A stretch of DNA of 18,949 nucleotides. Source: Planctomycetota bacterium. Lineage in GTDB: Bacteria > Planctomycetota > UBA11346. The translations under genes were made by a program, and so were the position numbers. The notes beneath the pieces are model-generated. The model made no database searches. It had not been told where the DNA came from and was given only the letters and a program-made list of their open reading frames with translations. The stretch lies in assembly GCA_038213805.1 (NCBI GenBank), contig JBBQSO010000097.1:1-18949 (forward strand), written 5' to 3'. Of this stretch, positions 1-7,138 are shown piece after piece (positions within the stretch are counted from its first letter, which is position 1; the number at the start of each line of letters is the position of its first letter).

Positions 1-75
1 CTCGTGGCTGACCGGCCGCCTGACCCGGCGACCCTGACTCCACTCGCGCTGCGCGGGATCCTCGCACGCACCTGA
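1..75 (+). CDS. Possible 3' end of a gene entering from outside the window, convergent with the cassette array
   Basis: Frame 1 is open (LVADRPPDPATLTPLALRGILART) to TGA at 73-75, with GC-rich host-like codons. Too short to identify. Confidence 0.4.
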   Translation, partial: LVADRPPDPATLTPLALRGILART

Positions 76-121
76 TCCGATCAACACCGCGCAAGCGATG
101 GTGACAGGGGCTGGAGCGGGA

Positions 122-140
122 GTTCACCGGAGGCTTACAC
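122..140 (-). repeat. Degenerate attC remnant (R''-spacer-L'' only) at the distal end of the array
   Basis: Minus strand reads GTGTAAG-CCTCC-GGTGAAC versus consensus GTCTAAC-CAGTC-GGTGAAC. No rest of the repeat is visible in 1-121. Confidence 0.55.
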
Positions 141-242
141 ATCTTCCGCATAAATTCTCTGCCATGTAGGGCGGAGATCCCCACAGGATGCAATCACAAT
201 AATTGCGACAAATAAAAATGCATAAGCTACAAGTGACTTCAT
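135..242 (-). CDS. Cassette 1: 35-aa lipoprotein-like peptide, probably a truncated remnant
   Basis: MKSLVAYAFLFVAIIVIASC carries a lipobox-like IASC. ATG at 242-240. The longer ORF-track version begins inside the attC. Confidence 0.5.
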   Translation of the reverse strand: MKSLVAYAFLFVAIIVIASCGDLRPTWQRIYAEDV

Positions 243-274
243 ATCGCTTGTAACCCGTAATTTACTAGTGCGAG

Positions 275-486
275 GTCTAACATAGAGGTAACGGGGGCCA
301 TGGCCGATATGGCGCCAGTGTGCACAGCGCCCGTCGTGGGCAATTGGAAAGACGCCCGAGCGCAAAGGGCGTGCCGCCTAGCCGCGGCGGAGCGAGTCTA
401 CGAGTGAGCACGGCGTAGCGGCATGCCATTTGCGCGGAGAGTTGGAAACCGAGACACATGGGCTCCCGTTCACCGACTGGTTAGCC
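275..486 (-). repeat. attC site 1 (212 bp)
   Basis: Minus strand GGCTAAC-CAGTC-GGTGAAC ... GTTACC-TCTAT-GTTAGAC: R''/L'' and L'/R' boxes with one extrahelical base in L''. Confidence 0.92.
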
Positions 487-490
487 ACGG

Positions 491-892
491 CTAAAACTGC
501 GAGACCGATGTCCATACACCGATATGTAGAAACCAACAAAGCATTAGAGTGGAAACTACCGACATTCCGCAATATATACCTGTCAGCATTATCGATTTTA
601 TGGGAAATGCGCTTTTTATCAACATAAATGAACCGGGTAAGGAAAGTAGGTAAACGAGCGGTGACAGCAACAAGGTGAAGTTGGAAAATCTGGACCCCAT
701 TGGGTCACGCCATTTACCGCTTCCATGCAGTGTTCCATCGGGACTGATGTATTCGCCATACCAACGGGAGATCATATCGCCGTATGCATAATTCCATATG
801 AGTACGGACAAACCTACAGTAATTACGATTAAAGATAGCAACCTTCCGTATTTCTCGGTAATTCCTATCGACCGGCTTGTAGTGGCTAACAT
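491..892 (-). CDS. Cassette 2: small multi-pass membrane protein of unknown function
   Basis: About three hydrophobic segments. The only ATGs upstream of the first segment lie in the attC (nearest 892-890), so the start is uncertain. Confidence 0.7.
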   Translation of the reverse strand: MLATTSRSIGITEKYGRLLSLIVITVGLSVLIWNYAYGDMISRWYGEYISPDGTLHGSGKWRDPMGSRFSNFTLLLSPLVYLLSLPGSFMLIKSAFPIKSIMLTGIYCGMSVVSTLMLCWFLHIGVWTSVSQF

Positions 893-1096
893 AGAGGTAA
901 CGGGGGCCATGGCCGATATGACGCAAGTGTGCACTGCGCCCGTCGTGGGCAATTGGAAAGGCGCCCGAGCGCAAGTGGCGTGCCGCATAGCCGCGGCGGA
1001 GGGAGCGAAGCGACTGAGCACGGCGTAGCGGCATGCCACTTGCGCGGTCAGTCGGAGCGAGAAGTCCATGGGCTCCCGTTCACCGACTGGTTAGAC
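884..1096 (-). repeat. attC site 2 (213 bp)
   Basis: Same repeat family; GTCTAAC ... GTTAGCC. Confidence 0.92.
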
Positions 1097-1356
1097 GTGC
1101 CGAACATTTCCCCGCCGCACGCCATTTTATGAGATGCGAGAAATCTTGGGTCAAAGGATGCGATAGTCCAAAGCACTAACAATCACGATGTGGGACGCCC
1201 CCAATTCAACGCTTTCATCATTTTCTATTAATTGACCGAAGTCAGATACAATCCCAATTTGTATTAAGACAAAGCGGAGTCAATGATATAATAGTGTATA
1301 TTATCTTTTATCCTTTTATTTTCGCCAATTGTGTGAACACATTCGCTAATTCGACT

Positions 1357-1587
1357 TCATCCGGCATGCAGTGCACCATGCCAGTAAAACAAGTGTAGAT
1401 AGTTTACGATAATAAATTCACCAACTGCTGTTTTCCATGCCATTTCCATTGGATAATAAATCACGTACAATTTTTTATTCCACTGATTTGAATGTAATTC
1501 ATCGTATTTATGCGCAATACCGAATGATATTATATAGAGTAATACCACCGCGATGGCCGTTTTGGCGATGAAATTACTGTGACTCAT
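1357..1587 (-). CDS. Cassette 3: 76-aa protein with an N-terminal hydrophobic segment, followed by ~260 bp without a long ORF
   Basis: MSHSNFIAKTAIAVVLLYIISFG...; ATG at 1587-1585. Confidence 0.6.
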   Translation of the reverse strand: MSHSNFIAKTAIAVVLLYIISFGIAHKYDELHSNQWNKKLYVIYYPMEMAWKTAVGEFIIVNYLHLFYWHGALHAG

Positions 1588-1601
1588 GAAAACAGAGTCC
1601 A

Positions 1602-1812
1602 GTCTAACATAGAGGTAACGGGGGCCATGGCCGATGTGACGCAGCATGCGCAGCCCACGTCGTGGGCAATTGGAAAGAGGGCCGAGCGCAAGTGGCGTGC
1701 CGCATAGCCGCGGCGGAGCGAGTCTGCGAGTGAGCACGGCGTAGCGGCATGCCACTTGAGCGGACAGTTGGAACGAGCGGCCCATGGGCTCCCGTTCACC
1801 GACTGGTTAGAC
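1602..1812 (-). repeat. attC site 3 (211 bp)
   Basis: Same repeat family; GTCTAAC ... GTTAGAC. Confidence 0.92.
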
Positions 1813-2247
1813 GCCATGCGCAAAATTGTCAGTTGCCGCACCAATCTGATCCCAGCCGTATCCCTCTTGATTATCATTTGTTTTTAAAACCGTAAAGATG
1901 TAGCGGATGTTATTGTAATCTTGTTCGCTGAGCAACGGTTTCACCAATGACCATCTTGTGCCGAGAGAAGATAGATATGAATCAATATATTCAGCGTTGC
2001 GATGAAGGAACCAATTGCAAATAACAGGGTACATGTAAAAAAGAAGGTCATGTGCATCCATAAATGCAAAAACATCATGGTAGTATTCTAATTCAACGTG
2101 AGAAACTTCAATCGGATTGCAATGCGATATTGGTAATTTGGAATAACTTTCATCGCCATGATCATCCATCAACCGTCCTTCTCGCAAATTCATACCTGGA
2201 GGTGAATGTTTTTCAGATATCGCGAGAAGCGGTGCGATGATATTCAT
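1807..2247 (-). CDS. Cassette 4: hypothetical cytoplasmic protein (weak resemblance to DUF6714-type proteins)
   Basis: The ORF fills the cassette and its TAA lies inside R''. The motif FAFMDAHDLLFYMYP recalls DUF6714 from memory only. An alternative in-frame start is at 2259. Confidence 0.75.
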   Translation of the reverse strand: MNIIAPLLAISEKHSPPGMNLREGRLMDDHGDESYSKLPISHCNPIEVSHVELEYYHDVFAFMDAHDLLFYMYPVICNWFLHRNAEYIDSYLSSLGTRWSLVKPLLSEQDYNNIRYIFTVLKTNDNQEGYGWDQIGAATDNFAHGV

Positions 2248-2250
2248 GGA

Positions 2251-2462
2251 GTCTAACATAGAGGTAACGGGGGCCATGGCCGATATGACGTAGCATGCAC
2301 AGCGCCCGTCGTGGGCAATTGGAAAGGCGCCCGAGCGCAAGTGGCGTGCCGCTTAGCCGCGGCGGAGCGAGCGCAGCGAGTGAGCACGGCGTAGCGGCAT
2401 GCCACTTGCGCGGACAGTTGGAAACAGAGACACATGGGCTCCCGTTCACCGACTGGTTAGCC
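2251..2462 (-). repeat. attC site 4 (212 bp)
   Basis: Same repeat family; GGCTAAC ... GTTAGAC. Confidence 0.92.
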
Positions 2463-2688
2463 TTCGGTTCACCTTGGAGCGGAGAGCAATAAAGTATCTC
2501 ACAAGTGAAACAAGAGACAGTGTAATAATCAGCAGACCGCCGATTAATCCGAGCCAGGAATTTACCACAATATGCTCGCTGCCAGGCAGCATTTGTGCGT
2601 GGATTGTAATAGACCAAAGCGCTAAAATCATCCCGATTGGGAGAAGCACCAGAAAGGCGCCGGCATAGACAAATCGCGATAAAATCAC
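2446..2688 (-). CDS. Cassette 5: ~80-aa two-helix membrane protein
   Basis: Two hydrophobic segments and a basic tail. Start is GTG 2688 (or 2691/2694). The TGA falls in the L'' box of attC 4. Confidence 0.7.
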   Translation of the reverse strand: MILSRFVYAGAFLVLLPIGMILALWSITIHAQMLPGSEHIVVNSWLGLIGGLLIITLSLVSLVRYFIALRSKVNRRLTSR

Positions 2689-2711
2689 CACCAATATAAT
2701 CCTATTGAGAA

Positions 2712-2924
2712 GGCTAACATAGAGGTAACGGGGGCCATGGCCGATTAGGCGTCATCTTGCACGGCGGCCGTGGTGGGCAATTGGAAATGCGCCCGAGCAC
2801 AAGTGGCGTGCCACCTAGCCGCGGCGGAGCGAGCGAAGCGAGTGAGCACGGCGTAGTGGCATGCCACTTGTGCGGAGAGTTGGAAAGCGAGACGCATGGT
2901 CTCCCGTTCACCGACTGGTTAGGC
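2712..2924 (-). repeat. attC site 5 (213 bp)
   Basis: Same repeat family; GCCTAAC ... GTTAGCC. Confidence 0.92.
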
Positions 2925-2966
2925 ACGCACACGCAATAATCACAATTCGGCCACATTCTAGCCATT

Positions 2967-3344
2967 CTACGGCACACATATGCCGCATACGATTGGCTGG
3001 GCATTCAATGATAAAGCCAATTTTACAATTTTCCCATCATGTGTGGTTAATTCCATTTCATCACTTTTTATATTATAATATTTTATTACACAAGGCTTTG
3101 CCACTAGATCGCATATCTTTTTATATTCAGACCCGTGTCGTTGATATGCAACATGCCATGCTTGAGTTCTATTAATGCTTACTTGCATATATTGAAAACT
3201 GTCATTGGAGAATGATGTACGCCCCCTTCTTGCGGTACCGAACATTAAAAACCCATATGCATCCACATCGGACAGTAAATTTTCCTTGTTAGATTTAATG
3301 TCTGGCAATCTACCAATGTATTTTAAATCAGGTTGTCTTCGCAC
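2967..3344 (-). CDS. Cassette 6: hypothetical protein (125 aa)
   Basis: AT-rich ORF filling the cassette, GTG start; no motif recognised. Confidence 0.65.
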   Translation of the reverse strand: MRRQPDLKYIGRLPDIKSNKENLLSDVDAYGFLMFGTARRGRTSFSNDSFQYMQVSINRTQAWHVAYQRHGSEYKKICDLVAKPCVIKYYNIKSDEMELTTHDGKIVKLALSLNAQPIVCGICVP

Positions 3345-3348
3345 ATAA

Positions 3349-3559
3349 GCCTAACATAGAGGTAACGGGGGCCATGGCCGATGTGGCGTAGCATGCAGAA
3401 GGCCCGTCGTGGGCAATTGGAAAGACGCCCGAGCGCAAGTGGTGTGCCGCCTAGCCGCGGCGGAGCGAGTCTGCGAGTGAGCACGGCGTAGCGGCATGCC
3501 ACTTGCGCGGACAGTCGGAGCGAGAAGCCCATGGGCTCCCGTTCACCGATAGGTTAGAC
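3349..3559 (-). repeat. attC site 6 (211 bp)
   Basis: Same repeat family; GTCTAAC ... GTTAGGC. Confidence 0.92.
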
Positions 3560-3566
3560 ATCGCGT

Positions 3567-4007
3567 TTACGCCACAAATCCCAGTGACTGTGCCGATATC
3601 CATTGCCACACAGCCAAATCCATGGCCATGATTTTATCGGAAATGATTCCCCCATTCACAGAAGGATGCGGCATTAGGGCACACACTTGGCTTGCGCCAA
3701 GAACGATTCCACGTGATTTCCAATCCAACAACCTGAGAGACCATAAGTTCTCGATTTGCCACGATTCGTCATGCACAAGATTTACAAATTCTGCATCAGT
3801 GTCGGCAATACTATCCTGTGTTCCAAATAAAACGCTAATCCTGCAATATTTCTCATCTTCTGTTTGCAAAAACCATTCGCCTAACCTATTCAAAAAAATG
3901 ACCCTGTATCTCATCGAAGGAAGCAATGGATTCCAATACGCCAGATATTTAGCCGCCAGTTGCGGATCCAACCCCTGTATCAGCAAGTCGTCCCACGTCA
4001 GCTTCAC
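3567..4007 (-). CDS. Cassette 7: Tdi1/DUF1851-like toxin immunity protein (146 aa)
   Basis: The C-terminus LGASQVCALMPHPSVNGGIISDKIMAMDLAVWQWISAQ fits the DUF1851 (T6SS Tdi1 C-terminal) pattern as recalled. GTG start at 4007. Confidence 0.7.
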   Translation of the reverse strand: MKLTWDDLLIQGLDPQLAAKYLAYWNPLLPSMRYRVIFLNRLGEWFLQTEDEKYCRISVLFGTQDSIADTDAEFVNLVHDESWQIENLWSLRLLDWKSRGIVLGASQVCALMPHPSVNGGIISDKIMAMDLAVWQWISAQSLGFVA

Positions 4008-4027
4008 GGAATCACCACGAGCAAGAT

Positions 4028-4238
4028 GTCTAACATAGAGGTAACGGGGACCATGGCCGATAAGGCGTAGCATGCATAGCGATCGTGGTGGGCAAATGGA
4101 AAGGCGCCCGAGCGCAAATGGCGTGCCGCCTAGCCGCGGCGGAGCGAGTCTGCGAGTGAGCACGGCGTAGCGGCATGCCATTTGCGCGGCGAGTTGGAAA
4201 CCGAGACGCATGGTCTCCCGTTCACCGACTGGTTAGAA
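4028..4238 (-). repeat. attC site 7 (211 bp)
   Basis: Same repeat family; TTCTAAC ... GTTAGAC. A second GGCTAAC lies at 4251-4257. Confidence 0.9.
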
Positions 4239-4260
4239 CAGCACACCGGTGTTAGCCGAT

Positions 4261-4608
4261 TCAAACCATTACCTGAAAGAAGGACTGCGAAAGCCCAGTA
4301 TTCATGTCGAGAACATCAATGATATCAATTGTTCCTACTGATAATTCCTTGGCAACATTTTCAGCTATGGAGACCTTGTATCCAAATGCATTGCGAACGG
4401 TCACGGGATCCACATCACCTTTCTTATAGTTTCCTATCCAATAATGCTTCGCATGATATTCAAAGATTGAATCTTCGCTGTATTCGACCTTTACACCAAG
4501 TCCAACCACAAAAGCGGGCGTCATATCTTGCTCACAACCAGACTTGATTAGTTCAACAAATCGCTTTTTTGCAGCGGACGTAAACTTTAAGAATTGCGCC
4601 TTTTTCAT
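4261..4608 (-). CDS. Cassette 8: hypothetical protein, possible HesB/IscA-like fold
   Basis: The N-terminus LKFTSAAKKRFVELI resembles the A-type carrier start (ITLTxAAxxxIxxL) and the size is similar, but the C-terminal CxC motif is absent. Confidence 0.65.
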   Translation of the reverse strand: MKKAQFLKFTSAAKKRFVELIKSGCEQDMTPAFVVGLGVKVEYSEDSIFEYHAKHYWIGNYKKGDVDPVTVRNAFGYKVSIAENVAKELSVGTIDIIDVLDMNTGLSQSFFQVMV

Positions 4609-4622
4609 AGGAGAAAGTCTAA

Positions 4623-4802
4623 CATGGTATGGGACCTTGAATTGACGCGATAACGACCGAAGGGCCCCGGATAGCGACCCACTAACCAGCCAAGTGACCG
4701 TGTTAGGGTGTGTTGGAGCAGAACGGCATGCGCGAGATTAGAGCACATCAAAAGTACATCAACTGATACCTTGCGTCGCTGCAAAACTGGTTTGGAGGCT
4801 AA
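4623..4802 (-). repeat. Type B 180-bp repeat, copy 1 (putative promoter + attI-like unit)
   Basis: Bounded by G|TTAG at both ends. About 16 substitutions and no indels relative to the copy at 5510-5689. Confidence 0.85.
4735..4762 (-). promoter_or_regulatory. Putative sigma70-type promoter in type B copy 1
   Basis: TTGATG-16 bp-TAATCT pointing into the cassettes. Both hexamers are identical between the two copies, while the spacer differs at 4 positions. Confidence 0.5.
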
Positions 4803-5008
4803 CATAGAGGTAACGGGGGCCATGGCCGATATGACGTAGCATGCGTGGCCCACGTCGTGGGCAATTGGAAAGTGGGCCGAGCGCAAGTGGCGTGACGCCT
4901 AGCCGCGGCGGAGCGAGGCCCCCGAGTGAGCACGGCGTAGCGGCATGCCACTTGCGCGGACAGTTGGAACGACCAGCCCATGGGCTCCCGTTCACCGAAC
5001 GGTTAGAC
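4797..5008 (-). repeat. attC site 8 (212 bp)
   Basis: Same repeat family; GTCTAAC ... GTTAGCC. Confidence 0.92.
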
Positions 5009-5494
5009 ATCGTACGGATCGCTTATTCCAAATTCGACTATCAATTTTCGTATTTCACTGCATGGATCGCTTGCAACTTGGTGCGCATTAATGTCGCAGA
5101 AGTAATATGAAATTTTCCTTTGGCATAATTTTAAGAGGCGACGCGCCACTAAATTGTCATTGTTTAAGACGGCATAAGAGAGTGCAGTGTCGCCATTAAC
5201 CGTTTTAGCGTCAACATTTGCCCCGCAGTTTAATAGATAATCAACTAAATGGTGGTATTCCAATCGCACCGCATGCATTAATGGTGTTGCAAAGAAATGG
5301 TCTACTGTATTAATATCGGAGCCCATCTTCTGAAGGAACTGAATTGAGTCCATCCTGTTTTCTACAACACACCAATGCAATGCAGTCTCGCCAGGAATAT
5401 TTTTAAGAGATAGCAACGATTTGTTTCCCAAGATGGCATTTCTTGCAGCAATCTTGTCGTTTTCCACTAATCGAATGAATTGGTAAAAATCCAT
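5003..5494 (-). CDS. Cassette 9: ankyrin repeat protein (163 aa)
   Basis: Repeats GETALHW..., ATPLMHAV...LLNCGANVDAK and GDTALSYAV. The TAA lies inside R''. Confidence 0.92.
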   Translation of the reverse strand: MDFYQFIRLVENDKIAARNAILGNKSLLSLKNIPGETALHWCVVENRMDSIQFLQKMGSDINTVDHFFATPLMHAVRLEYHHLVDYLLNCGANVDAKTVNGDTALSYAVLNNDNLVARRLLKLCQRKISYYFCDINAHQVASDPCSEIRKLIVEFGISDPYDV

Positions 5495-5509
5495 ATTCTA
5501 GATGTCTAA

Positions 5510-5689
5510 CATGGTATGGGACCTTGAATTGACGCGATAACGACCGAAAGGCCCCGGATAGCGACCCGCTAACCAGCCCAGCAACCGTGTTAGGGTGTGT
5601 TGGAGCACAAAGGCATGCGCGAGATTAGAGTGCAACGAAAGTACATCAACTGATACCTTGCGTCGCTGCAATGCATGTATGGAGGCTAA
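5510..5689 (-). repeat. Type B 180-bp repeat, copy 2 (putative promoter + attI-like unit)
   Basis: As for copy 1. The junction at 5510 is a supported crossover point: GTTAGACATC is complementary over 10 bp to the R'' of the ankyrin cassette. Confidence 0.85.
5622..5649 (-). promoter_or_regulatory. Putative sigma70-type promoter in type B copy 2
   Basis: TTGATG-16 bp-TAATCT. Confidence 0.5.
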
Positions 5690-5790
5690 CATAGAGGTAA
5701 CGGGGCCATGGCCGATTAGGCGTCAACATGCACCACACCCCTCGCGGGCAATTGGAATGCCGCCCGAGCGCTACTGGTGTGGTGCCTATC
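5684..5790 (-). repeat. Partial attC (L'/R' arm only) at the proximal end of the array
   Basis: About 100 bp match the R'-side half of the repeat, decaying with distance. No GGTGAAC/CTAAC partner is present where expected (~5875-5895). Confidence 0.75.
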
Positions 5791-5895
5791 TTCGCCAACC
5801 AGCATCGCGGACTCTGGGGGCGCCCGAGAGCACAGTTCGCGGGTGTGTTTCAGGGAGTCTGCGAGCACCCGCTGCCAGGCGTCATCCGGTGGCAT
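5716..5895 (-). CDS. Possible 59-aa leader ORF running into the partial attC
   Basis: AAGGAG lies 9 nt before the ATG (MPPDDAWQ...), downstream of a terminator. Its C-terminal part is attC-derived sequence. Confidence 0.4.
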   Translation of the reverse strand: MPPDDAWQRVLADSLKHTRELCSRAPPESAMLVGEDRHHTSSARAAFQLPARGVVHVDA

Positions 5896-6001
5896 GGTGC
5901 TTTGCTCCTTGTGAGCGTTCAGGCACGCCGTCATGGCCGAATGCCAGATTGCTTGAGGGAGAGGACTACCACCTCCTGTTGGCGAGACATGACAGGCGCA
6001 C

Positions 6002-6034
6002 AAAAATAAGACCCCGGGGCAACCCCAGGGTCTC
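6002..6034 (-). terminator. Intrinsic terminator of the YHS-like gene
   Basis: Minus strand AGACCCTGGG-GTTGC-CCCGGGGTCT followed by TATTTTT. Confidence 0.75.
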
Positions 6035-6061
6035 ATGTGAGCGTCCACTAAAACGTGAGGT

Positions 6062-6316
6062 TCAGAGCTTCTTGTTCGCCTCGGCGGCCGCGACGTACTT
6101 CTTCGGGTCGGCCTTGACCTTGGCGGCGCACTTGTTGCAGCACACGCCGATCTCAACTTCCTTGCCGGCGCTGTCCTTGGCCTTGATCGGGGCGACCGCG
6201 GGGTCGACATCTTTGCCGGTGGCCGGGCAGACGGTGTTGACGGCCTTGGGGGCATCCTCGGCCATGGCCGCACTGACGAAGGAGAGTGAGAGGATGAGGG
6301 TGAGGATGTGACGCAT
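6062..6316 (-). CDS. Small exported YHS/TRASH-like metal-binding protein (84 aa)
   Basis: Signal peptide ending AMA-E; motifs NTVCPATG and GVCCNKC...ADPKKY; AAGGA upstream; host-like codon usage. Confidence 0.85.
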   Translation of the reverse strand: MRHILTLILSLSFVSAAMAEDAPKAVNTVCPATGKDVDPAVAPIKAKDSAGKEVEIGVCCNKCAAKVKADPKKYVAAAEANKKL

Positions 6317-6708
6317 GGAGGATGTCCTTGTGAGAGGGCTTGGCTTAGGGACTACGGAAATGAGAGCGCTGCGTTCACGAGTCGCGATATGGTTGGCACT
6401 TCATGGGTGGACGGAAACTGGTCCTCGCGCACCTGAACACCTATTTCGAGCGGCTCCGACCCTCGTCTTTTACTGCTCTCATCATCGAGCCCTTTCGCAT
6501 CCCGCCTACCCCACCAGCCAGGACGAGTGCGTTAACCCGGTCCCTGTTCTCCAGTGGAGAATCAGAGAACGGCCCGTGCATTGGCCCCAGTGACGGGGGT
6601 GTCCTGCTTGGTCACCAGGATCTCATTCCAGAACGGAGAACGGTTCCACGTGCTAAGTCTTTGCCCGTTGGGGGTTGCGTGGGCCATTCAGCGGCCCGGC
6701 CCCATAAC

Positions 6709-6736
6709 AAAAAATCCCCGGCTTGCGCCGAGGATT
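6709..6736 (-). terminator. Intrinsic terminator after the tRNA
   Basis: AATCCTCGGC-GCAA-GCCGGGGATT followed by a T run. Confidence 0.85.
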
Positions 6737-6741
6737 CCACG

Positions 6742-6818
<77 letters not shown>

Positions 6819-6831
6819 TCGTGAGGGCAGG

Positions 6832-6859
6832 ACCATAGGAGGGCTGCCAGGGTTGTCAA
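6832..6859 (-). promoter_or_regulatory. Stable-RNA-type sigma70 promoter of the tRNA
   Basis: TTGACA (6859-6854), 16 bp, TATGGT (6837-6832), then a GC-rich discriminator. Confidence 0.75.
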
Positions 6860-7138
6860 ACCCTGGTTCAGAGCCGTTGGGCAGGTGATCGATGCGTGCC
6901 GGACAAGATCTAACTCCTGGAACGGCAAGGGTTCGAATCAGCGCAGTGGCGACCAGCCACATCTATTTCCTGCGCTGGGGGCTTGAGTGGGCGGATCGGG
7001 GTGACAGCTGCGGGCGCGGCGTGGGTGGCATGACGCTGTGGGGGAATCCCCCGTGGGCGATCAGACCCGCAGGATTTCCCCGCATGGACCTCATCTGCGG
7101 CCGGATACAATGGGGGCGTACCCCTTTCGGAGCCAGCC

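Follow-up and report, generated by a model that had tools for sequence, protein, structure and literature searches.

Can a start codon built into an integron recombination site influence the genes that recombination places behind it? The question is raised by a contig of Planctomycetota bacterium (GenBank assembly GCA_038213805.1, contig JBBQSO010000097.1; we call this whole stretch of 18,949 nucleotides (nt) the window). The minus strand of positions 135-5790 is the cassette array of a chromosomal integron, with nine cassettes, eight attC sites (207-209 nt), one truncated attC and two attI-like units. All of the sites end in AT-G/TTAG, the slash marking the crossover, and this places an ATG ahead of whichever cassette comes next. 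An initial annotation proposed that unrelated cassettes share a frame convention, that nearly every cassette gene is coupled or fused to this ATG, and that the arrangement is either a built-in translation relay or a footprint of how cassettes are created. In a larger sample we find neither the shared frame nor an enrichment of overlaps and coupling. A weaker form of the idea does survive, since the frame of the crossover ATG is treated differently from the other two. When the ATG frame is out of frame with the gene it is closed by a stop codon within 33 nt in 29 of 31 cases, versus 13 of 25 and 18 of 30 in the two control frames (43 cassettes; Fisher P=2e-4). We believe, with a probability of about 0.5 and on the strength of comparative sequence data, that the site ATG is a usable start that cassettes accommodate, so that the coupling would be a by-product of damage limitation rather than the work of a purpose-built relay.

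The repeat that separates the cassettes is about 208 nt long, starts CTAACCAGTCGGTGAACGGGAGCCCATGG on the minus strand and ends CCATGGCCCCCGTTACCTCTATG/TTAG, in eight full copies and one truncated copy. Inverse core sites (CTAAC...GTTAG) and inner inverted repeats bound the eight full copies, which is the anatomy of attC. The usual attC is about 57-141 nt long, so these sites are far above the usual length. The sites and the two attI-like units are as follows.

277..484, minus strand: attC 1, 208 nt, from R'' CTAAC to R' GTTAG
886..1094, minus strand: attC 2, 209 nt
1604..1810, minus strand: attC 3, 207 nt
2253..2460, minus strand: attC 4, 208 nt
2714..2922, minus strand: attC 5, 209 nt
3351..3557, minus strand: attC 6, 207 nt
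4030..4236, minus strand: attC 7, 207 nt
4799..5006, minus strand: attC 8, 208 nt
4623..4802, minus strand: attI-like unit 1, 180 nt, G/TTAG at both ends, non-coding
5510..5689, minus strand: attI-like unit 2, 180 nt

The 180-nt units had first been taken for a second repeat type alongside attC. Their last 100 nt or so align to the attI beside the integrase genes of this genome (on another contig) and of a sister genome, so they are attI-like units and not a second attC. Going by these alignments, attI-like sites sit in the array as gene-less cassettes. A protein-coding role for the units is ruled out because the differences between the two copies fall 6/8/7 across the codon positions.

The crossover ATG itself is exactly where it was said to be. 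Within positions 1-7000 of the window all 11 plus-strand CTAACAT sites read ATG/TTAG on the minus strand (9 of the long-repeat type and 2 of the attI-like type), with the recombination G being the G of the ATG. The second in-frame ATG six codons upstream (M-A/V-P-V-T-S-M-L) is likewise present in all eight full attC; it lies 18 nt upstream and is the CCATGG of the inner inverted repeat. At the truncated site (5686-5790) this second ATG is out of frame, with one C absent. Across the whole site family, with the crossover triplet left free in the search, it is ATG at 57 of 58 attC boundaries and GTG at the other. The five attI-type sites were searched with the ATG fixed, so they are no independent measure of its conservation. 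A diverged 122-nt subfamily in sister genomes has ATG three times, GTG three times and ACG once, and the non-start triplets of the sister arrays (ACG, TCG in genome G007) are too few for a control within the family. When the top strand of attC 7 is folded as RNA, the outer and inner boxes pair around a 5-nt internal loop (-97.4 kcal/mol, z = -2.7), and the AU of the AUG lies in that loop while its G lies in the outer stem.

The attC contains a further ATG 25 nt from its start, within the inner repeat close to the 5' end of the site, in every member of the family. It opens a reading frame that reaches the crossover in 34 of 49 sites, on a top strand that is poor in stops. The family's sites are 209, 208 or 207 nt long (20, 13 and 8 sites), and because of these single-base differences no frame is conserved across the attC. 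The frame from position 25 is therefore spread over all three phases, and in the 208-nt sites it stops on the TAG of GTTAG, like ORF-11 of class 1 integrons. The attC itself as a protein-coding sequence is ruled out, since the 207/208/209-nt lengths throw the inner ATG into all three phases.

Reading from each crossover ATG in the window gives the following open reading frames (ORFs), listed with the cassette genes they lead into.

135..242, minus strand: cassette 1 gene, ATG 242-240, cut by an insertion sequence (IS)
239..283, minus strand: mini-ORF 1 in the ATG frame, ATG 283-281, 14 codons, TGA 241-239 overlapping the gene ATG (ATGA)
491..892, minus strand: cassette 2 ORF, in frame with crossover ATG 892-890, no stop between
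1357..1587, minus strand: cassette 3 gene, ATG 1587-1585
1584..1610, minus strand: mini-ORF 3, 8 codons, TGA 1586-1584 (ATGA overlap)
1807..2259, minus strand: cassette 4 ORF, in frame with crossover ATG 2259-2257, weak DUF6714 match
2446..2694, minus strand: cassette 5 ORF, small membrane protein, start ambiguous (TTG 2694, GTG 2691 or GTG 2688)
2685..2720, minus strand: mini-ORF 5, 11 codons, TGA 2687-2685, overlapping GTG 2688-2686
2967..3344, minus strand: cassette 6 gene, GTG 3344-3342, the first start in the ORF
3328..3357, minus strand: mini-ORF 6, 9 codons, TGA 3330-3328, 14 nt past the first base of GTG 3344
3567..4007, minus strand: cassette 7 gene, GTG 4007-4005, confirmed by homologues
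4004..4036, minus strand: mini-ORF 7, 10 codons, TGA 4006-4004 (GTGA overlap with GTG 4007-4005)
4261..4608, minus strand: cassette 8 gene, ATG 4608-4606
4605..4625, minus strand: mini-ORF 8, from an attI-like site, 6 codons, TGA 4607-4605 (ATGA overlap)
5003..5494, minus strand: cassette 9 gene, ankyrin repeats, ATG 5494-5492; matches to ankyrin models are sub-threshold only
5498..5512, minus strand: mini-ORF 9, from an attI-like site, 4 codons, TAG 5500-5498, one codon (AAT) before the gene ATG

Every coordinate given in the initial annotation for its five (A/G)TGA overlaps (242-239, 1587-1584, 2688-2685, 4007-4004 and 4608-4605) is correct, and we reproduce the TAG-AAT-ATG of cassette 9, the fused frames of cassettes 2 and 4 and the looser arrangement of cassette 6 (stop 3330-3328, GTG 3344). 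Two of the overlaps depend on GTG starts, and of these the homologues bear out one. In cassette 7, three of five homologues begin MKL(T/G)WDDLLIQ exactly at GTG 4007 and two carry 3 extra residues; the start of cassette 5 is still ambiguous. Cassette 4 has an ATG of its own at 2247-2245, 12 nt behind the crossover ATG, and the N-termini of its homologues fall at residues 4-8 of the fused reading. The candidate starts of cassette 2 are TTG at offsets 51 and 81 and ATG at offset 117, and a homologue search for it returned 20 candidates, none significant. Pfam and NCBIfam gave no family for cassettes 1-3 and 5-8. The cassette 7 protein (3567-4007) belongs to a small family of five homologues at 35-59% identity, with invariant KLxWDDLLIQ, FLxxxGxWFL and PHP. 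In the window alone the ATG frame has its stop within -9..+14 of the gene start, or is fused, in 9 of 9 cassettes versus 6.0 expected from the three-frame control (P=0.015), but the window is the discovery sample that prompted the idea.

To go beyond it we collected further boundaries of the same site family. A scan of our genome collection returned 59 stretches, among which true arrays occur in one sister metagenome-assembled genome only, together with single sites; the remainder are lone chance matches. The arrays of the sister genome lie on three contigs and comprise 8, 12 and 13 sites. A metagenome scan with a motif from the R'' side returned 13 stretches and one true member (L068). Among the 61 relatives searched the site family is found only in members of the genus to which this genome belongs, and pattern scans at the family and phylum level (48 and 401 genomes) gave no further large arrays of this attC family or of the second one described below. 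Including two more contigs of the genome itself (C7 and C177) the total is 63 boundaries, 58 at attC and 5 at attI-type sites. A boundary was kept if its longest forward ORF had at least 80 codons and at least 1.5 times the length of the next longest, with the first start within 125 nt. This kept 47 boundaries, from four genomes and one metagenome contig, and dropped 16, among them cassette 1 of the window, which the IS cuts, its cassette 5 with two ORFs of equal length, a pair of duplicates, both attI-like units and copies of a repeated family of about 326 nt. Removing this repeated family from the 47 gives the 43-cassette set. The control frames are the other two frames read from offset 9, behind the conserved core, which is equivalent to a leader 1 or 2 nt longer.

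The family of about 326 nt has no consistent ORF and may be a non-coding cassette. It has at least six occurrences in the sister genome and a single one in this genome, at boundaries M34 10012/11688/13541, M9 11307/14021/15101 and C177 1838 (L012, reverse complement; L057; L002).

The early closure of the ATG frame holds outside the window. Without the window cassettes the counts are 25 of 27 versus 24 of 45 (P=5e-4), and in the other genomes alone they are 21 of 22 versus 18 of 34 (P=8e-4). Readings begun 45-210 nt inside the cassette are closed within an equal distance at 33-65% in every frame, so the effect is local to the cassette 5' end. Shuffling the leaders gives the same answer: closure by 33 nt is seen in 33 of 43 cassettes against a mean of 26.1, a count reached by 5 of 2000 shuffles. 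An analysis of 55 distinct leaders that takes no account of ORFs finds the ATG frame closed by 33 nt in 40, versus 19 and 19 for the others (exchange test P=1e-5), and it is the first frame to close in 30 of the 55 (P=0.001). The effect is also visible past the gene start. In the +2 frame relative to the gene the ATG-frame stops lie 5, 5, 5, 5, 5, 5, 8, 11, 14, 14, 17 and 86 nt past the start, against a median of about 55 nt for the control readings (P=0.0007; 0.005 with the window left out). If the leader already holds the stop of the ATG frame, the next stop past the start comes at 11-110 nt, like the controls.

A second family of sites makes the comparison from the other side. Sister genomes carry attC of about 80 nt that end CCCGGTGATGCTGGTC G/TTAG, in which TCG is the crossover triplet, with a conserved ATG in another phase 7 nt upstream of it. 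Over 29 distinct cassettes of this family, only 6 have a stop by 33 nt in the frame equivalent to the window's ATG frame. The shortest frame is the one with the family's own ATG, at a median of 35 versus 70 nt (P=0.019), and it has 2 readings of 66-200 nt versus 10 and 9 in the other frames. We regard the second family as a clean negative control and a marginal replicate. One genome (G022; L111 and L112) contains an array of at least 25 short attC of about 80 nt ending CCCGGTGATGCTGGTCG/TTAG; the first 10 nt of its cassettes are strongly conserved (TTAGGCGTCA) and one 241-nt cassette is present three times.

Early closure is the pattern expected if the ATG is translated, and it suggests, from the comparison of frames, that ribosomes actually use the crossover ATG. 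Ribosomes able to start there would make a peptide of 4-14 residues whose first ones are M-L-(D/A/G), and would be released before or at the gene start, from where they could re-initiate. A cassette whose ATG frame continued past the gene start in the wrong phase would have poor expression and would be lost. Because leaders are short, with a median of 19 nt, the early stop usually falls on or just behind the gene start (ATGA, GTGA, ATGNNTGA), and this is the very pattern that drew attention to the window. The leaders long enough to separate closing early from closing at the start are those of at least 24 nt. Of these 12, the ATG frame is closed by offset 33 in 11, but the stop is near the start in only 2 under the ATG rule or 5 under the first-any-start rule. 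What is invariant is that the frame closes early rather than that it closes at the start, which favors accommodation over a purpose-built relay. A 4-mer resembling a Shine-Dalgarno (SD) sequence precedes 258 of 1042 long host ORFs, versus 111 of 1042 at an internal control position, and it is found at 4 of 43 cassette starts. With frequencies this low in both, initiation without an SD is the norm here.

Several points weigh against accommodation of a translated ATG. Our cassettes are few, and all are from a single genus (G000, G003, G010, G005, G007) apart from one metagenome contig. The closure statistic was devised after seeing the data, though it holds in genomes that did not prompt it. A paired sign test outside the window is non-significant (9 vs 4, P=0.13), and stops that come prematurely, within the leader, show no significant excess in the ATG frame (16, 14 and 11 cassettes per frame). 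Part of the signal in the analysis without ORFs is inflation, since genes lie in the ATG frame less often than in either of the others (8 vs 16 and 16). The replicate in the second family is marginal (P=0.02-0.04) and is lost under the strict ORF filter, which keeps 15 of 32 boundaries (P=0.12). Conservation of the ATG is uninformative, since the entire R'/L' end of the site is invariant. Finally, the crossover ATG has no SD-like 4-mer upstream (CCCCGTTACCTCT; the upstream sequence reads ...GGCCATGGCCCCCGTTACCTCT) and it is located at the foot of the attC hairpin.

One alternative is the reading that the window seemed to show, a built-in relay in which a portable ATG in attC and attI drives any cassette by termination and re-initiation or by in-frame fusion, as ORF-11 does in class 1 integrons. 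The stop and start geometry of the window speaks for it. So does the fact that with leaders shorter than 24 nt the stop is within -4..+17 of the start in 18 of 19 out-of-frame cassettes, although there a relay and damage limitation are indistinguishable. One mini-ORF of 24 codons ends exactly on ATGA (contig C7, offset 72), the leaders are too short to hold an SD, and ORF-11, ORF-18 and short attC ORFs set a precedent, according to a review (PMC8876359). The larger sample speaks against a relay. The gene frames relative to the ATG are 12/20/15 over the 47 cassettes, so there is no frame convention. The NTGA overlaps number 8 in the ATG frame versus 3 and 8 in the control frames (6.3 expected, P=0.28), and without the window there are 5 versus 5.0 expected. 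As for nearly every cassette being coupled or fused, the stop lies within -4..+5 of the start or the frame is fused in 25 of 47, versus 21 and 21 (22.3 expected, P=0.23). The comparison with shuffled leaders that the initial annotation called for comes out the same way: fused, or with a stop within -4..+17, in 29 of 43 against a mean of 26.5, which 278 of 2000 shuffles match. In-frame fusions are rare if anything: the ATG frame has 8, and in the other two frames 15 and 12 genes stay open back to the boundary. In 10 of the 12 cassettes with leaders of at least 24 nt the stop comes 13-71 nt before the ATG-rule start, and the crossover ATG has none of the SD on which ORF-11 depends. We consider a relay unlikely. 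Without enrichment beyond the window, the strong form of the earlier finding is a property of the window in which it was discovered. It is similarly doubtful that the crossover of attC and attI is a portable SD-independent start at which ribosomes load at every junction of a polycistronic array, so that re-initiation from the stop of a 4-14-codon reading, at or ahead of the gene start, translates promoterless cassettes without an SD wherever they are inserted. If it were true, cassette 5' ends would be shaped by the site, and the recombination and translation signals would be one sequence.

The opposite view is that all of this is coincidence: short leaders and A-rich second codons bring stops near starts, the ATG is merely a conserved part of the site that is never translated, and the early closure is an artefact of sampling or analysis. 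The overlap by itself we do judge to be coincidence. In 25 of 43 genes the base after the start codon is A, and with leaders this short the background of stop and start proximity is high, with an NTGA arising in one frame more than half the time. The overlaps are no commoner than expected, the paired sign test gives nothing outside a window that is itself the discovery sample, and an ATG within an invariant stretch needs no translational reason for its conservation. What coincidence does not predict is that the closure difference would persist in the other genomes alone, be limited to the first 30 nt or so of the cassette, exceed the leader shuffles, and be absent from the equivalent frame of an attC family with no ATG there. 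We give coincidence a small chance of being the whole story. That the pattern is instead a footprint of cassette genesis, in which formation (e.g. from transcripts joined to attC) fixes the phase between site and gene start, fits the very short leaders and the gene ATG found at offset 16 in 7 of 29 second-family cassettes, but it is very improbable given gene frames spread over all three phases and the fact that cassettes move between integron sites, so that the upstream half of the junction differs from that at the birth site.

We still prefer accommodation of a usable site ATG, and it can be compared to known systems. Translational coupling through overlapping stop and start codons (ATGA, TAATG) is well known in bacterial operons. 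The 47 cassettes have ATGA or GTGA at 8 and TAATG at one, which is similar. Unlike in an operon, the upstream ORF here is a reading of 4-14 codons from a recombination site and not a gene, and the overlap is not enriched over the control frames.

The closest precedent is in class 1 integrons, where attI1 contains ORF-11, ORF-18 and ORF-17 (Hanau-Bercot et al. 2002 and later work, as presented in the review PMC8876359). In that account ORF-11 has its own SD, GGAG, 8 bp upstream, its effect requires both SD and ATG, and its proposed mode is termination and re-initiation on cassettes that lack their own initiation region. The likeness is that a short ORF starts in the recombination site, crosses the crossover, and is given a stop by the cassette near the start of its gene. 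This is so at all five attI-type junctions, where the stop is at offsets 12-24 and the distances from stop to gene start are -6, +1, +5, -13 and +5 nt. There are also differences. No SD-like motif precedes the crossover ATG here. The stop of ORF-11, according to the same account, is the TAG of GTTAG, whereas here that TAG falls in a different frame, and it is the leader or the gene's opening codons that supply the stop. The G of the ATG is the crossover base, and the ATG is found in attC as well as in attI-type sites. The setting, too, is a Planctomycetota chromosome and not a mobile class 1 integron, and our evidence comes from sequence comparison, not from experiment.

Short ORFs within attC have been proposed to relieve the block that the hairpin places on translation (Jacquier et al. 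2009, Mol Microbiol 72:1475, as cited in PMC8876359 and PMC11511950). PMC11511950 calls such cases anecdotal and finds the effects of attC minor in 136 resistance cassettes. As reported there, the model shares with the present case a start codon in attC, which it proposes to hold ribosomes on the message and to aid the next cassette. Its ORF starts near the stop of the preceding gene, as these sources describe it, and is translated through the hairpin, whereas the crossover ATG here is about 200 nt after that stop, at the 3' foot of the hairpin. A candidate for the role they describe would be the ATG 25 nt into each attC, though its frame falls in all three phases. The attI-like units also have a counterpart in the Delta-attI-type gene cassettes of mobile integrons (PMC12901181, 2026). 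As these are described, both are cases of attI-derived sites serving cassette-like units inside arrays, but the two 180-nt units here are gene-less and in a chromosomal array with no adjacent integrase gene. In the open-access literature that we searched, we found no report of cassette leaders adapted to a start codon carried by attC.

The nine minus-strand ORFs between the repeats are co-oriented with one per cassette, and the cassette stretches have a GC content of about 35-54% versus 60-78% in the flank within the window. An all-against-all BLASTP of the coding cassettes gave no mutual similarity except for the listed duplicates and the one repeated family. The array is therefore one of co-oriented, mostly single-gene cassettes with short leaders, mutually unrelated and of foreign composition. 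No integrase accompanies it: a tblastn search of the window with IntI had a best E-value of 0.98, so there is no IntI-like match or remnant. A complete integron is present elsewhere in the genome on contig C7. Its integrase scores 375 bits against TIGR02249 (cut-off 265), contains Phage_integrase and SAM_4 domains, and is followed downstream by an attI and then seven attC of the window's family. Since the two share an attC family and the window has no integrase, the array in the window is a second array of that system, of the kind called clusters of attC sites lacking integrases (CALIN-like). A second, partial integrase-like stretch is on contig C54, with 47% identity to residues 181-408.

The two ends of the array are as follows.

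1..139: end of the insertion sequence that truncates cassette 1, aligning to the end of transposase-bearing contig G000:C177 up to ...GGAGGCTTAC
5686..5790, minus strand: truncated attC reduced to its R'/L' half, where the array ends upstream, joined directly to high-GC host DNA

On C177 (L002, G000:C177 1560-1715) the same IS end abuts an attC at the inner repeat, and the transposase is on that contig. The assembly break at the array end is probably caused by the IS repeat. Contigs from four DNA runs are broken at the repeats, and most of their joints have sides of less than 31 nt and were disregarded. One contig of run X1 joins 4750 to 5638 and so skips 887 nt, that is, one attI-like unit and cassette 9.

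It is only in part clear how promoterless and nearly leaderless cassettes come to be translated wherever they lie in an array, and the answers so far have come from a few class 1 resistance cassettes. The present work adds a comparison of genomes with natural chromosomal arrays, as evidence that selection on cassettes "sees" a start codon inside the recombination site ahead of them. If ribosomes do use this ATG, the site would also set the rules for the opening codons of each captured gene, which would affect how their starts and N-terminal extensions are annotated, and it would account for the expression of some captured genes and the silence of others.

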